Source of the DNA: Eledone cirrhosa
Lineage: Eukaryota
Direction: 5' to 3'
Assembly (NCBI GenBank): GCA_964016885.1
Contig: OZ024745.1
Coordinates: 34,286,001-34,350,000 of the forward strand
DNA length: 64,000 nt
Part shown: piece after piece, positions 1,797 through 60,634 of the stretch
Layout of the letters: each line of letters begins with the position of its first letter
How positions within the stretch are numbered: the stretch's first letter is position 1
The notes under the pieces: model-generated
Told to the model about the DNA's origin: nothing
Seen by the model: only the letters and a program-made list of their open reading frames with translations
The model's database searches: none
Position numbers and translations under genes: made by a program

Positions 1797-1800
<4 letters not shown>

Positions 1801-1990
1801 AAGTATGACCCCGACGGCAGAGCTCAAGCCGTTTCGACGGCTAATTCTGGACTAGTTCAGAATTAGCCGTCGAAACGGCTTGAGCTCAGCCGTCGGGGTC
1901 CTACTCGTTCCTATTGCCCACTCTACTACCCTAAGTATTGAGTACTTTGGTGCGTTATGGTCCATCTGGTTCCTTACCACATTTCCTTCG

Positions 1991-1993
<3 letters not shown>
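1797..1993 (+). mobile_element. palindromic mini-PLE end, family P1 (hairpin plus tail) in (TA)n
   Basis: inverted repeat 1807-1900 plus ~90-bp tail; same sequence as the 3' end of the PLE at 43853-45120; carries the HHR 3' half GAAA-CGGCT..AGCCG-TC. Confidence 0.8.
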
Positions 1994-2056
<63 letters not shown>

Positions 2057-2058
<2 letters not shown>

Positions 2059-2266
2059 CTTTAATCCTGGGTTCAAACGAGGGTAACCACAATAAGTAAG
2101 GTACTCAATACAAAGCAGAGTATAAATATTCAATATAGAAAAGCCTCTACAGGACTAGAACTGTTTCATTCGGGAGAAAATCATCAGTAACAGCATCACA
2201 AGCTTCCAGGTGATTTCTCCCGAATGAAACAGTTCTAGTCATGTAGAAGCTTTTCTATATTAAATA
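2057..2266 (-). mobile_element. palindromic mini-PLE end, family P2, in (TA)n
   Basis: inverted arms ~2131-2184 and ~2211-2262; tail 2057-2140 homologous to 43002-43088; HHR core on minus strand 2141-2190 and degenerate copy on plus strand 2200-2252. Confidence 0.75.
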
Positions 2267-17413: not shown

Positions 17414-17461
17414 AGAAGATAAGGTAGTATACATTTATTGTATATATATATATATAGTAAT

Positions 17462-17647
17462 TGTCTCTACTTTAGGCACAAGGCCAGCAATTAACCAGTG
17501 CATTACTGGTACTTTATTTTATCGACCCCGTAAGGATGAAAGGCAAAGTCAATCTCGGCGGGATTTGAACTCAGATCGTAAAGGGACGTAACTATGCTGG
17601 AAAGCATGGCGTCCGACCCTCTACTGATACTGCCAATCCACCGCCCT
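17462..17647 (-). mobile_element. SINE S1, full length
   Basis: reverse complement of the 2546 copy; flanked by TATATATAGTAAT duplication. Confidence 0.88.

Positions 17648-18636: not shown

Positions 18637-18637
<1 letters not shown>
18400..18637 (-). mobile_element. SINE S2 (tRNA head, CORE-like body)
   Basis: reverse strand has GTTCGATTCCCGG then GTCCTT..GCAAGACACTTTATTTCA; relatives at 23290, 38380, 40150 and 42120. Confidence 0.65.
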
Positions 18638-18690
<53 letters not shown>

Positions 18691-18694
<4 letters not shown>

Positions 18695-19040
18695 AAAAAA
18701 AGATGAAATCGAAAATGCAACTGGAGTCTTATTTAAAAATATATATATACATATTTATTTGGTTCCTTTACCGGTTTCGCAGTTCTTCTGCTTTTCAAAA
18801 GATGAGTTGAGATGGACGGTCTGTAGTTTTTCTCACAGGAAAACCACAGACCCTCCAACTCAACTCTACTTTTGAAAAGCAGAAGAACTGCGAAACCGGT
18901 AAAGGAACCAAATAAATATATATATATTTTTTAAAATAAGACTCCAGTTGCATTTTCGATTTCACCTTTTTCTTTATACTTTCACTCGTGTAGGACACCT
19001 CGATTATTTTTCATTTTGTAAAAAAACCTCACTTTCTAAT
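18691..19040 (+). mobile_element. palindromic mini-PLE end, family P3, in (TA)n
   Basis: ~140-bp inverted arms 18691-18976 plus ~64-bp tail; same two boundaries as 33796-34073. Confidence 0.8.
18868..18905 (+). ncRNA. minimal type I hammerhead ribozyme, U3-A8 variant (mirror copy on minus 18765-18802)
   Basis: CTT-TTGAAAA-GCAG aagaa CTGC-GAAA-CCGG-TA-AAG. Confidence 0.75.
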
Positions 19041-19134
19041 ATATAAATATATATATATATATATATAAATATAAAGAGAGAGAGAAAGAGATAGAGAGAG
19101 ATGTATACGCATATATACATACATGTATATATAC

Positions 19135-28029: not shown

Positions 28030-28230
28030 AGGAACCAGTAAGACCCCGACAGCTGAGCTCAAGCCGTTTCGACGGCTAATTCTGGACTAATTCAGTCCAG
28101 AATTAGCCGTCGAAACGGCTTGAGCTCAGCTGTCGGGGTCTTACTGGTTCCTATTACCCACTCTACTACCTCAAGTATTGAGTACTTTGGTGCGTTATGG
28201 TCCACCTGGTTCCTTACCACATTTCCTTCG

Positions 28231-28266
<36 letters not shown>

Positions 28267-28476
28267 ATATATATATATATATAACGGAGGAAATGTGGTA
28301 AGGAACCAGGTGGACCATAACGCACCAAAGTACTCAATACTTAGGGTAGTAGAGTGGGTAATAGGAACGAGTAGGACCCCGACGGCTGAGCTCAAGCTGT
28401 TTCGACGGCTAATTCTGGACTAAATTTAGTCCAGAATTAACCGTCGAAACGGCTTGAGCTCTGCCGTCGGGGTCTT
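28030..28476. mobile_element. two P1 mini-PLE ends, tail-to-tail around a (TA)n tract
   Basis: 28030-28233 (+) and 28282-28476 (-), each a hairpin plus tail like 1797-1993. Confidence 0.85.
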
Positions 28477-28599
28477 GAACATTTTCCTGTATATATATAT
28501 ATATATATATATATTTTGCCGGTTGTGCATATAACTGTATTTTCCTTTTCTCTTTCGTCTCTCTCTCGCCCCCCCCCCTTCTAACAAGTTTGATTTAGA

Positions 28600-30225
28600 A
28601 CGTAGCACGATGGAAAGCATCCACCAGATAGCTAATTCCATACACCAGAGTATAACTGTAACTATCGACTTCCCTTCCAAACACCCTAACAATAGACTAC
28701 CTGTATTAGACACAGAATTCTGGATTAACACTATAGACAAGAGAGCCCAAATTCTCCACTCACACTATGCTAAACCCATGGCCTCCAAATACCTGATACT
28801 CAAAAACTCAGCAATGTCCAGTAGTGCTAAGTTTAATATTCTGATCGCAGATTTGGTACGAGTGATGAAGAATGTATCCCGCATGTGCGACCCAACTGAA
28901 ATGGAAAGACACATCCAACACTTCATCAACCGCATGTAGTTCTCTGGCTACAACCAAGGAGACAGAGTCAGAGTGTACGAAGGAGCCATGGAAAAGTATA
29001 AGACCCTCACAGAACTGGACATGAAAGGAATTTGCCCATTATACAGGAGCAAATCATGGAATAGCTTAGATAGGGCTAGACATAAGATAAGGAAAGCCAC
29101 CTCATGGTACGACAACAAGAGATACCAGAGTGTCATGTTTGTGGACGCTCCCCTGGAGGGAAATTAGCTAACCAGTGTAGAAAGGCCCTGAGAAAGACCC
29201 ACTTAAAAATAAAGGTGGTAGAAAAGCCAGGAACCACCATAAAATCCCTGATCAGCAAAACCTACCCTTTTAAGAAAACCCACTGTACCAATAGGAAATG
29301 TATCATATGTAAGGTGAACCCCCGGATAAACTGTAAAACTAGAAACGTAGTCTATAGCATAAGATGTACAGAGGGTACTTGCAGAAACATGACAACAACA
29401 TACATAGGTGAGACAGCTCGTAGCATAGGTGAAAGGATAGACCAACACGGGGAACTAAAAGGACGAAAAAACGGGTCAGTACTATACGAACATGCGAGTC
29501 AACAACATGACGGTAACATAGACAACATAGAAATTAGAATAATATCTAAACATAGAAATGACCCAGCAGATAGGCAAATCAGAGAGGCCAGTGAAATAGA
29601 AATTAGAAGACCAAAGCTAAACAGAAAGAATGAATGGAATAACAACAACACCCAAACAAACAACACTGACCTAAGAGAAGTATAAATAAGTAAATAAAAT
29701 AAGATAAATAAATAAGTAAATAAATACACAAGCACAATAACAACAAGCACATAAACACACACTAGTCACCCATCACACAGCAAACATAACACTATACACA
29801 CACGCAAACGCATGCGCAAAGAAGACAAAATAAACTAAACAAACAAGCAAATAAATAAATAAATATATAGACAGACTGAATAAAAATGGCGTAGACATAC
29901 AACACAACAGGAGGAAAATATAATACCACTGATGATGTTGCAGATGTGCAACGAAAGATTTATGATAAACTATATATATCTGTTTGTGTCTATATTGTAT
30001 CTGTATTATTTTTGACCGTCGGTCAGTCAATGGCAACATTGAGGACCGAGTAAGTTAGATTACCGATATAAAAGACAGCGAGAAGCGAAAACCAACCAAA
30101 GAGTGAGTGTGTTCTGTTATTAATTCTGGCAATATTACACAAATATGACCCTCCCCAAGTATAACAATATTTGTTTCGACACACGATTTCATATAAAAAA
30201 CCTCGAAAAACTAATTCATCGCCGC
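28600..30225 (+). mobile_element. 5'-truncated Penelope-like element: RT C-terminus, GIY-YIG endonuclease and 3' HHR
   Basis: DFPSKH..LPVLD..HYAKPM; one stop (28937) and one frameshift (~29150); C..C..CKTRNVVYSIRC..C..YIGETARSIGERIDQH..RQIREA..LNRKNEW ending 29685. Confidence 0.88.
29924..29967 (+). ncRNA. type I hammerhead ribozyme downstream of the GIY-YIG ORF
   Basis: TACCA-CTGATGA-T-GTTGCA gatg TGCAAC-GAAA-GATT-TA-TGATA. Confidence 0.75.
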
Positions 30226-30239
30226 TATATATATATATA

Positions 30240-30430
30240 TAGGAACAAGTAGGACCGCGACGGCTGAACTCAAGCCGTATCGACGGCTAATTCAGTCCAG
30301 AATTAGCCGTCGAAACGGCTTGAGCTCAGCCGTCGGGGTCCTACTTGTTCCTATTACCCCCTCTACTACCCTAAGTATTGAGTACTTTGGTGCGTTATGG
30401 TACACCTGGTTCCTTACCACATTTCCTTCG

Positions 30431-30433
<3 letters not shown>
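30240..30433 (+). mobile_element. P1 mini-PLE end in (TA)n
   Basis: same hairpin plus tail as the 1797 and 28030 copies. Confidence 0.85.
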
Positions 30434-33740: not shown

Positions 33741-33795
<55 letters not shown>

Positions 33796-33799
<4 letters not shown>

Positions 33800-34065
33800 A
33801 AAAAGGGATGAAATCGAAAATGCAACTGAAGTCTTATTTTTTAAAAAAATATATATATTTATTTGGTTCCTTTACCGGTTTCGCAGTTCTTCTGCTTTTC
33901 AAAAGGTGAGTTGAGATGGAGGGTCTGTGGTTTTTCTCACATCTGGTTGGTCTCTAATTGTTACTTGTTTTATATGGAAAAAGTGGCTCGAAAACCAGGT
34001 TTTCTTTATACTTCCACTCGTGTAGGACACCTCGGTTATTTTTCATTTTGTAAAAAAAACCTCAC

Positions 34066-34073
<8 letters not shown>
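33796..34073 (+). mobile_element. P3 mini-PLE end with internal deletion/rearrangement; HHR on minus strand 33869-33906
   Basis: same ends as 18691-19040; reverse strand reads CCTT-TTGAAAA-GCAG..CTGC-GAAA-CCGG-TA-AAGG. Confidence 0.8.
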
Positions 34074-34096
<23 letters not shown>

Positions 34097-42674: not shown

Positions 42675-42982
<308 letters not shown>

Positions 42983-43088
42983 ATATAAGAATATATATAT
43001 AGGTAAGTTATTCCGGGTTGAATCGGAGGTAACCACAGTAAGTAAGGTACTCAATACATAGCAGAGTATAACAGTTTTAATATAGATT

Positions 43089-43139
43089 AGATTCTACAGG
43101 ACTAGAACTGTTTCATTCTTTAGAAATCATCAGGAATCT
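43089..43139 (-). ncRNA. type I hammerhead ribozyme (P2)
   Basis: AGATTC-CTGATGA-T-TTC taaa GAA-T-GAAA-CAG ttctagtc CTG-TA-GAATCT. Confidence 0.8.
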
Positions 43140-43590
43140 GGCTTTCCAAAATAAATGTTTTGGTATTTATATCTTTTCAGGTGGTAGGAGAGGGTGGGGG
43201 TGGGATGGGTGGAGGTCATTGGTTGAAAGAAAAGGGAATTCATTAAAAGCTAATTCTTTAAGGCTATAATTTATATTGAGAGTGACAAAGGCAGAAAGAA
43301 TTCTATAAACAAGTTCAGATTGGGGTACCATTCCTTATTTTTAAGTTTCTCTTAAGCTAACAATGCCTATATTTCAGGTATCTATAAGATGGTTGGGGGT
43401 CGGTCATGGTTGATGGATTTAAAGAAAAGGAAAATTCTTTAAAAGCTAATTCTTTAAAGCTCTACTTAGAGTGACAAAGGCCAAGAGAATTCTATAAACC
43501 AGTTGAAAATATTGGCTGCCTATCATATCATTATTGTCATGTTTCTCTTAAGCTATATTCCAGGTGTCAATAGACACATTCACACACACG

Positions 43591-43852: not shown

Positions 43853-43855
<3 letters not shown>

Positions 43856-45120
43856 CGAAGGAAATGTGGTAAGGAACCAGATGGACAATAACGCACCAAA
43901 GTACTCAATACTTAGGGTAGTAGAGTGGGTAATAGGAACAAGTATGACTCCGACAGCAGTGCTCAAGCCGTTTCGACGGTTAATTCTGGACTAAATAAGA
44001 ATTTTTAGCCCGGTAAATAAATAGCCGAACTTCTCAGGGGGTAATCCCTTATATGGGAAGATAGTAATTGTCAAAAGGATTGGTAAAAAATTTGTTGTAA
44101 AGACAGATGATTCTATCATGGCATTTGGTGGCTGAACTTGCTGGTAGAACAAAGAGGGAGTGGGGCAAACCCAGTCAAGCGTTGAAAGTGATATCTATAC
44201 AGCAGATTCTAAGGATAATGTATAGAAGGTCGAAAAAAGTGTACTAGAGAAGGGGAGGGGGGGGGGGGGGTGAAAGAATAGGTAAATCTCTCATTGGTAT
44301 TGCTAAGCTATACAAAAGTTTAATAGATGGAGAAAAATACTAAATACGAGATTGTAGTGAGTGAAAGAATTTTATAAAGCCGGCTTTACAGGGGGTCTAA
44401 CACCACTGCTATAGATAGTTAGTAATCAGCCAATGATATCTTACAATGACAGGTTAATAAGTTGAGAACAAAAATACTAAAATACTACTACAAAAATACT
44501 AATAGAAAATATTAATTCAAAATACTAATACAAAAATACTAATACAAAGTACCACTAAGAAATTTAGAAACCACAGAAATGGAGCAGCAACCAGAAAGAA
44601 AACAATTTACTGGGGTCTAACACATCTGCTATAAAAAGCGTAATTGGCGAATTCTATCTTTAAATTAGGGGGGGGGGGGTAATGGGGCTACAGAGGACCG
44701 ATGGGCTGCATCGGGGTAGGCGAAAAGGTGAAAAAAAGACAAGGAAGGAGATCTGGGTTGGAGGGACTAGGAAGAGATGGAGGGAAGAAGGAAATATAGA
44801 GGAAAAGATAAAAAAGTTACGTCTACCTTTATAAGTAAGTGTTACCCCTTACAAAATCGGCAAGTGGGGTGTATCAGCCCGTGTCTAACCCTTCCCCGGG
44901 TCATTATGCGGTTTGAGGGCGAGGTAAGTCCTACGCAATCTATGTTTGCATGCGGTTACCAGTTCGTCTTTCTTGTTTAGGAGTTGGTCCTTCGAAAACA
45001 ACATTTGTAATATTTCCTCCGAGCATAAGTTACACGGACGGCGTCCTCCCGTGTAAGAGTTAGCTCTGGACAGTAAGCTCCAAGTAAGATGTGGCCCGAA
45101 AGTGTAGTAGCATTCTATTT
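43853..45120 (-). mobile_element. Penelope-like element 3' part (parent of P1): GIY-YIG C-terminus, 3' UTR, HHR and tail
   Basis: minus ~45115-44885 reads NATTLSGHI/WSLLSRANSYTGGRRPCNLCSEEILQMLFSKDQLLNKKDELVTACKH; ends in the P1 tail at 43853. Confidence 0.8.
43947..44042 (-). ncRNA. full P1 hammerhead with long stem II and altered core
   Basis: ACCCC-CTGAGAA-long stem II (..CGGCTA..CGGGCTAAA/TTTAGTCCAG..TAACCG..)-GAAA-CGGC..GCTG-TC-GGAGT. Confidence 0.65.
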
Positions 45121-45159
45121 ATAATGTTTTTTTTTTTACTCCCTTTCGATTTACCCATT

Positions 45160-45209
<50 letters not shown>

Positions 45210-46649: not shown

Positions 46650-47090
46650 ATGTGTATGTGAATGTGTCTGTTGACACATTAAGAGAAACATGACAATAAT
46701 GATATGATGGGCACTCAATATTTTGAACTGGTTTGTAGAATTCTCTTGGGTTTTGTCACTCTAAGTAGAGCTTTAAAGAATTAGCTTTTAATGGATTTGC
46801 CTTTTCTTTAAATCCATCAACCATGACCGACCCCCATGCATCCTATAGACACCTGAAATATAGCATGGTTAGCCTAAGAGAAACTTAAAAATAAGAAATG
46901 GCACCCCAATCTGAACTTGTTTATAGAATTCTTTCTGCTTTTGTCACTCTAAATATAAATTATAGCCTTAAAAAATTAAGTTTTAATGAATTCCCTTTTC
47001 TTTCAACCAATGAGCTCCACCCATCCCACTCCCCACCCTCTCCTACCACCTGTAAAAATATAAATAGTAAAACATATATTTTGGAAACCC

Positions 47091-47243
<153 letters not shown>

Positions 47244-59582: not shown

Positions 59583-60634
59583 TAATATTATGGATTTGAC
59601 TAAAAACTCATTGTTTTAAACGTTTTACGTGTCCAAGAGTAAAGATCAAACACAATATAAAAAACATCCTGGATTTCTAAAGTAGAAATATTTCATTCTT
59701 GATTTTTGTTGTTGTGGTTACTATTACCCTTTCGTGTCTATATCAAATATTTCCATTATGTTTTTAAGCCAGTAAGTTTGGGAATCTAGGATTGTTGTTT
59801 GTAAGACTTGAAATATATATTAAAAACTGTTAGCATAATTTCACAGAAGATTCTGACAGGAATCGCCACGAGAAAGTTCATGTTGTGACTCCTAATATGA
59901 CACTGAGTAATTGTCGTCTTATATGTGTCAACTTCATCGCAACATTATCAATATTTCTTTGCTTAGAGTCAAAGCTGAACGTTTTTATTGAGAGGTTAAA
60001 TGGATCTCCGACATTTATGTGCGTCTTTCGGAAGTCACCCGCATATGGGAATTACTAACTTGAGCAACCGGAACTGAAATGGCACACTACCGTGAATGAC
60101 TAGTCATCTTTTGAAGTTATAATCTATGTACGAATGAGAAAAAGTGGGCTACACTAAACTATACTCCCTTTCACATTTGTAGTATTTTCCCTGCTGTCAC
60201 TGTTAGAAAATAGGATAATAAGAAATCTTAAACGGATACACTGAAAAGATATTGCCAAGCAAACAACGAACCAACTATCAATACATTGTTAGAAAGATAA
60301 ATAAGAGAATCCTAATGAAACAAATGAATCTGATACTCTCGAAAAAGATTTTAGTAGGAAAATATGAATATTTGATACAATATTATAGTAACAGATATAA
60401 TATGGAAAGAAGACATTGTTTCAAGTGACAAGTAGTTTTAAAACAACAAAAGACACACGTAAATAAACACAGATAAAATTTAAGAAATTTATCAATTCGT
60501 GCCCCAAATTCTATAAGTATTTTTCATATTTGTAGTATGACAGATAGCTGGAAGTAATGCTATTAACGTATTAGCGTACTTCGCTTTGTTTTGGGGGAAG
60601 AAAATAGATTCTAAACAGAAATAATATAGTCAAT

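Follow-up and report, generated by a model that had tools for sequence, protein, structure and literature searches.

How do Penelope-like elements (PLEs) come to lie in the genome as inverted copies of themselves? The question is raised by a 64,000-nucleotide stretch of the Eledone cirrhosa assembly (GCA_964016885.1, contig OZ024745.1, positions 34,286,001 to 34,350,000 of the forward strand; here called the window), in which four short hairpin-like copies of one repeat family, P1, carry half of a hammerhead ribozyme twice over. PLEs are the closest mobile relatives of telomerase, and for the palindromic junctions of their inverted pseudo-long terminal repeats (pseudo-LTRs, or pLTRs) the published conjecture has been self-priming. 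A first-pass annotation of the window proposed that nascent cDNA folds back and primes its own second strand at the stem II hairpin of the ribozyme. Our analysis points elsewhere: the palindromes are probably two separate cDNAs joined head to head, each begun by one of the two cut ends of a (TA)n target at its own fixed site in a shared RNA and copied until it runs off a putatively capped 5' end.

The four short P1 copies are present as first described, at 1797-1993 (+), 28030-28233 (+), 28282-28487 (-) and 30241-30433 (+), and each has (TA)n runs on both sides. We numbered element positions from the G three bases 5' of the core GAAA (position 0; negative values are upstream), and on this scale each copy, or mini, resolves into two arms:

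1797..1854, minus strand: tail-less inverted arm of mini 1, element -16 to +45, of another subfamily than the tailed arm of mini 1
1853..1993, plus strand: tailed arm of mini 1, element -16 to +132, with the hammerhead 3' half and an 87-nucleotide (nt) tail
28030..28090, minus strand: tail-less inverted arm of mini 2, of a young subfamily
28090..28233, plus strand: tailed arm of mini 2
28282..28425, minus strand: tailed arm of mini 3
28424..28487, plus strand: tail-less arm of mini 3, of a different subfamily, with a zero-loop junction
30241..30293, minus strand: tail-less inverted arm of mini 4, ending at -9
30290..30433, plus strand: tailed arm of mini 4, extending to about -15

In all four minis the GAAA-stem III-GUC half of the hammerhead occurs two times, the two being inverted relative to each other, and the 5' core half is missing, just as the annotation had it. 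The palindromes, which it put at about 200 bp, have inverted arms of 53 to 63 bp, and the palindromic part spans only about 120 bp, the remainder being the 87-nt tail carried by one arm. Likewise, the hairpin layout stands, but the apex CTGGACT/AGTCCAG that all four were said to share is incomplete in the mini at 30241, which is without the CTGGACT half. In the minis at 1797 and 28282, the two arms come from different subfamilies and differ at several linked sites.

Judged from sequence motifs, the minis are stubs of a Hydra-clade PLE. A 3,542-bp tandem unit contains one open reading frame (ORF) of 717 amino acids, and motif inspection of its translation identified a reverse transcriptase (RT) followed by a C-terminal GIY-YIG endonuclease, with RWR and DKT motifs, a CxCX5C linker (CNCPDRSIC), CxxC as CNLC and CxH as CKH, and no CCHH. 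We base the clade assignment on the agreement of this motif set with the description in the consulted part of PMC8557442; the (TA)n targets of the element are a further Hydra-clade trait. A Pfam scan covering seven ORF pieces from the window found no match in either of the PLE-like pieces. Exact-pattern counts, which are lower bounds, gave 16,855 tight head-to-head pairs in the 3.0-Gb assembly, 22,044 occurrences of an arm 31-mer, 36,652 of a tail 30-mer and 4,670 arms with both ribozyme halves, and every reversed-pattern control was 0.

The outer ends of these copies are fixed, at about +45 in the tail-less arm and +132 in the tailed arm. In the tandem units TAT comes after both positions and could pair with a (TA)n primer. 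Moreover, exactly one tailed and one tail-less arm were found in 15 of 15 tight palindromes and in 23 of 23 long pairs, all of them (tight and long) chosen without using the tail. A fragment of another PLE, with RT thumb-like and GIY-YIG-like frames, extra cysteines and no Pfam match, lies at 28535-30226 (+) with P1 minis at both flanks.

For the inner ends, we took the 100 tail matches that come first along contig C1 and parsed all of them, which yielded 77 short head-to-head pairs, 11 copies with a long tailed arm and 12 without a recognised inverted arm, although by eye at least 3 of these 12 (L229, L234 and L238) do show a short one. Mapping breakpoints across copies, the check that the annotation had suggested, revealed that they are clustered rather than scattered along the element: the furthest inner end lay between -19 and -9 in 61 of the 77 short pairs, with a peak at -15 and -14, and beyond -22 in only 2. 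In a young full-length copy, the apical loop of stem II occupies -23 to -20 and A(-15) lies in the 3' strand of that stem. The breakpoints are thus within stem II, as was proposed, but they stop short of the apical loop, at A(-15). That the junctions arose independently, also part of the original proposal, is borne out by the 50 loci listed, whose apexes are of many kinds. The modal junction, of 24 nt, accounts for 11 of the 50; it is seen in either mirror form and across several subfamilies, and 6 of the 50, counted by eye, are perfect palindromes with no loop at all.

We then compared the lengths of the two arms. The tail-less arm was the longer one in 39 of the 77 short pairs and the tailed arm in 27, with 11 equal; among 23 long pairs the split was 11 tail-less, 11 tailed and 1 equal, and up to 2.5 kb was found only in the tail-less arm. 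Because the tail-less arm reaches further upstream in 39/77 short and 11/23 long pairs, it is not a copy of the tailed arm. In 4 of the 77 short pairs the arms do not overlap: the tailed arm begins at +46 or later, and the two have no sequence in common. Separately set inner ends, a trait of twin-primed insertions, are therefore found in short and long pairs alike, and some of the short pairs have non-overlapping arms.

A single RNA copied twice could account for these arrangements. Such an RNA would start at -15, run through the tail, the ORF and the 3' untranslated region (UTR), and end after a second complete ribozyme, so that -15 to +132 would be present at its 5' end and once more at its 3' end. 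One target end would prime at +45 and the other at +132. Priming in the 5' pLTR copy would generate run-off cDNAs of 60 and 147 nt, similar to strong-stop products, whose joining would give a mini; priming in the 3' copy would give cDNAs truncating at scattered sites, and hence long head-to-head pairs; and one cDNA from each copy would leave a short inverted arm next to a full-length element. Joining of the 3' ends might rely on 0 to 4 nt of microhomology, on blunt joining or on a template jump, and a run-off end may also jump into the element body (L144 and L150). A common RNA would be expected to leave the two arms alike, as would fold-back, and at a subfamily marker the arms agree in 11,021 of 11,197 pairs (3,231 + 7,790; 98.4%) and disagree in 176, where random pairing would give about 4,670 disagreements.

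The minis at 1797 and 28282 are among the 176 marker-discordant pairs (1.6%), and the four discordant pairs listed within G000:C5:34.28-35.88 Mb form a local excess. Arms of mixed subfamily, as in these two minis, cannot be produced by fold-back; later recombination could produce them. A different arrangement is seen in L296-L300 (G000:C1, about 91.48 Mb and 437.2 Mb): at least four 3.5-kb units follow one another head to tail, together with one long inverted arm, and here too one end is tailed and the other tail-less. Such arrays suggest jumps in succession, a circular template or an RNA made by read-through.

The base at which the arms stop provides a second line of evidence. The arms end at A(-15), which is the +1 adenine of a match to the Initiator consensus YYANWYY (taken from PMC4581360), often with a G that is not templated. 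Between -84 and +51 there is no other YYANWYY match, and the whole unit contains 60 matches per 3,542 nt. Where a single base lay between two -15 ends, it was G/C in 27 cases and a templated A/T in 3 (57 loci listed), and 9 more loci had an unambiguous extra G. We determined the orientation of 20 extra-G copies: in 15 of them the subfamily has T at -16, which makes the G non-templated, and the extra base can be on one arm, on the other or on both. An extra 5' G in L1 insertions has been read as a copied cap, according to the consulted parts of PMC11702581 and PMC9341517. A second limit with an extra G falls at A(-19). In addition, 6 of 30 copies that run from the pLTR into the ORF start at this hot spot and have a short inverted arm next to them, which indicates that full-length cDNAs end where the minis end. 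We infer from these insertion ends a transcription start at A(-15), with a minor start at A(-19), inside stem II of the hammerhead. The CUGA half would then be absent from the minis because transcription likely begins inside the ribozyme.

Two further features were noted around this site. The consensus sequences of the downstream promoter element (DPE; 5/6) and the motif ten element (MTE; 7/12) have partial matches by eye, which we did not use as evidence. In L098, L123 and L135, long stretches of A/T extend the arm ends at the -18 T-tract; by analogy, these suggest reiterative copying at the template end, as in telomerase-like enzymes.

Within the window, the ribozyme and the Initiator match can be placed on one long P1-family copy:

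43853..45160, minus strand: long P1-family copy, 5'-truncated, with the end of the endonuclease region, the 3' UTR, the pseudo-LTR and the tail
43932..44050, minus strand: type I hammerhead motif within that copy, with the 5' core half at 44037-44031 (C3-A8), GAAA at 43974-43971 and GUC at 43954-43952
43988..43994, minus strand: Initiator match YYANWYY, with the +1 A at 43992 corresponding to element -15, the limit of the mini arms and putative transcription start

The annotation had taken 43947-44042 (minus) for a complete hammerhead in the parent of the minis. We find it instead to be a degraded relative from another subfamily: its core is CUGAGAA, with a C3-A8 mismatch and no Watson-Crick 3-8 pair, and its lowest-energy fold is not a hammerhead. 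Given its C3-A8 type and a subfamily that differs from the tailed arms of the minis, this copy is a relative of the minis and not their source. Young long copies, in contrast, have a type I hammerhead as their lowest-energy fold, with a three-way junction, a long stem II, GAAA and a GUC site. Among 87 long arms the core was UUGAnAA (U3-A8) in 58, CUGAGAA (C3-A8) in 27 and AUGAGAA in 2, and a U3-A8 pair has been reported in a PLE hammerhead (PMC4209133). An Rfam scan of the window gave no hammerhead among the 150 of 313 matches listed, and its rows over the minis were sub-cut-off microRNA-precursor models, which are generic hairpins. The long copy itself begins (45120-45161, minus) with a short inverted bit of its own 3' UTR, apparently matching an internal gap of roughly 90 nt.

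A sister PLE family serves as a natural control, and one of its minis is in the window:

2058..2263, minus strand: sister-family mini palindrome of the same layout, with its apex 5' of stem I

The assembly contains 5,523 tight palindromes of this family with the same one-tail layout. Their limit lies 5' of stem I, and many of the sister-family minis retain CUGAUGA. Since the apex is here outside stem II, the palindrome layout is independent of that stem. The limit is again the adenine of a YYANWYY match, and the next base was a non-templated C in 21 loci, a templated G in 7 and A/T in none (a hand count of the 28 unambiguous among 84 listed loci). The sequence traits of run-off at a capped start, namely the Initiator match and a non-templated G at the limit, are therefore found in both families. 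The sister family also has long head-to-head copies, whose hammerheads carry the canonical CUGAUGA, at 42990-43551 (-) and 46679-47146 (+), on either side of the long P1 copy.

Several points weigh against the joining of two run-off cDNAs, or limit how far our data speak for it. The loci sampled all lie at the start of contig C1, some ends in diverged copies are wrongly placed by the parser, and the 23 long pairs are neighbours picked by hand (20 among arms with both ribozyme halves, 3 from earlier loci). The 98.4% agreement between arms suits fold-back equally well. The start site and the cap are read from insertion ends, non-templated bases occur at other arm ends too (a single G in L080, L227 and L228), and the extra G could reflect terminal-transferase bias. 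Copying one RNA twice would require strand displacement. The consulted part of PMC11167929 reports no difference in start sites between strands, against the strict one-each rule seen here. The dominant 24-nt junction could be a snap-back of the run-off end; tandem annealing of two cDNA ends through G.A mismatches, which we tried as another source of this mode, found no support from duplexfold. Finally, 18 of the 30 best matches share the window apex without an indel, and some copying of finished palindromes may have taken place.

Among alternative explanations, the one that fares best keeps twin priming but has one run-off end snap back over a loop of 4 to 6 nt, after which the new sense strand anneals to the other cDNA, the hairpin being set by the RNA end and not by stem II. 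It would account for the arm agreement and for the modal 24-nt junction with its mirror forms in several subfamilies. However, snap-back cannot yield zero-loop palindromes, non-overlapping arms or arms of two subfamilies, and we consider it unlikely, a contributing route at most.

A second alternative keeps the joining of two cDNAs but attributes the stop at -15, instead of to a capped start, to breakage of the RNA, to an exonuclease block or to pausing of the RT at a protein-bound stem II. The region is structured and U-rich, and A-runs at some ends suggest slippage on U. On the other hand, an extra G and an Initiator match recur at the limit in two families, and long copies that pass -22 continue for hundreds to thousands of bases, as do their partners. 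A stop of this kind seems to us quite unlikely.

The mechanism that the annotation had favored, in which the tailed nascent cDNA folds back at stem II and copies itself, akin to the self-priming of PMC3846280, is very unlikely. The position of the breakpoints inside stem II, the arm agreement and the longer tailed arm in 27/77 pairs are what it would predict, and a cDNA extended to -31 could form a weak hairpin (-2.5 kcal/mol). Yet no hairpin is predicted for a cDNA ending at -15, and few pairs reach past -22. Fold-back would need a longer tailed arm that retains the stem II loop, so the arm lengths count against it; among the listed C1 loci whose arms both extend to -18, none retains the natural loop together with its 5' strand. 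Nor can a tail-less cDNA make a tail by fold-back, and the long tail-less arms therefore contradict self-priming. The 176 marker-discordant pairs argue in the same direction. Together, the arm lengths, the non-overlapping arms, the lost loop and the sister-family apex outside stem II largely refute stem II fold-back as a general route.

Descent of the minis from one or a few finished palindromic masters moving as a unit is extremely unlikely, and we rejected a single master as a general route given the junction variety within each subfamily: although 8 of 40 scored matches to mini 2 are identical over its full 204 nt (the window copy counted among them) and many best matches share its apex, the identical-copy search favors sequences close to its query, samples taken in order of position have many junctions in both mirror forms per subfamily, and long ribozyme-bearing counterparts exist for each mini subfamily.

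We therefore return to two run-off cDNAs joined head to head. More than twenty thousand independent junctions in two families separate this route from fold-back, and they name an exact predicted start base together with a cap signature; if that prediction is true, PLE start sites can be read from DNA alone, and the model would explain the long-puzzling inverted shape of PLEs. More tentatively, and as a conjecture that may well prove wrong, PLEs might integrate by obligate double priming class-wide, each target strand priming on one of two fixed sites of one RNA. Retrovirus-like strong-stop cDNAs from the 5' pLTR, joined or jumping, would then build the inverted pLTRs, the tails and the tandems known across the class, and the hammerhead, by cleaving the 3' copy and so removing both priming sites there, would switch the output from full-length copies to minis. 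Such cleavage, or transcription from the minis, might account for the predominance of minis.

Other repeats in the window are of separate interest. A third (TA)n-flanked family is present at 18637-19063, as a long palindrome, and at 33742-34096, as a linear copy. At 42675-42982, a (CT)n-(TA)n-(AG)n run forms the center of a palindrome with 154-bp arms. A repeat of roughly 190 bp resembling a short interspersed element (SINE) is found at 17455-17637, with copies near 1, 2549, 21283, 25843, 36843, 39158 and 59399. At 59832-59904 (-), an Rfam match to the CPEB3 ribozyme, which is like that of hepatitis delta virus (HDV), scored 36.6 against a cut-off of 35 bits (E 4e-6), and is likely a retrotransposon-borne HDV-like ribozyme, to judge from this match.

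Much of what we describe has precedents, which we compare here using the parts of each source consulted. The inverted copy, the tail, the internal promoter, the hammerhead and the two start sites are already published. The joining model was not found in literature searches on PLEs that were aimed at twin priming, at strong-stop cDNAs or at capped cDNAs lying head to head, with subscription journals outside their coverage. In Hydra-clade PLEs, an adjacent inverted 5'-truncated copy with a one-sided tail is described as standard for PLEs (Craig et al. 2021, PMC8557442). Our element shares this arrangement, as well as the C-terminal GIY-YIG domain, RWK-like and DKT motifs, CxCX5C, the absence of CCHH, (TA)n targets and a pLTR hammerhead. 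It differs in having a tail of 87 nt instead of 30 to 40 and a fixed truncation site; the consulted part of that paper gives neither such a site nor a mechanism of inversion. The non-LTR retrozymes (bioRxiv 10.64898/2026.07.22.740005) are likewise short non-coding PLE derivatives related to the pLTR, but they are described as head-to-tail tandem units with complete hammerheads. We ruled out this identity for the minis, which are head-to-head units without the 5' core half.

In Drosophila virilis, Penelope has an internal TATA-less promoter and its transcript begins in the upstream pLTR (Schostak et al. 2008, PMC2377424); that start was mapped by experiment, whereas ours is deduced from insertion ends. 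The Penelope elements of Adineta vaga (Arkhipova et al. 2013, PMC3846280) have head-to-head inverted pLTRs, palindromic junctions, an optional tail and an Initiator-like pLTR motif, as here. Self-priming, possibly on an antisense template, was inferred for their junctions, whereas the symmetry of arm lengths in our data argues for two sense-templated cDNAs. For Poseidon PAc of Anolis, in vitro work showed cutting of both target strands and their extension from two internal sites close to the 5' end of the RNA (Frangieh et al. 2024, PMC11167929). Priming there is near the pLTR-ORF junction, with a predicted protein dimer. As we propose for our element, two internal start sites define the tail and both strands are extended, but here there is one site per side and a shared 5' limit, and product joining is not addressed in the consulted part of that study. 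The route that we propose resembles L1 twin priming (PMC11702581), in which the second target end primes in the same RNA, the cDNA ends are joined and an extra G marks the cap. In L1, however, the second site is chosen by microhomology and the pieces barely overlap, whereas the E. cirrhosa element uses two fixed sites, and one 60-nt stretch is copied twice.
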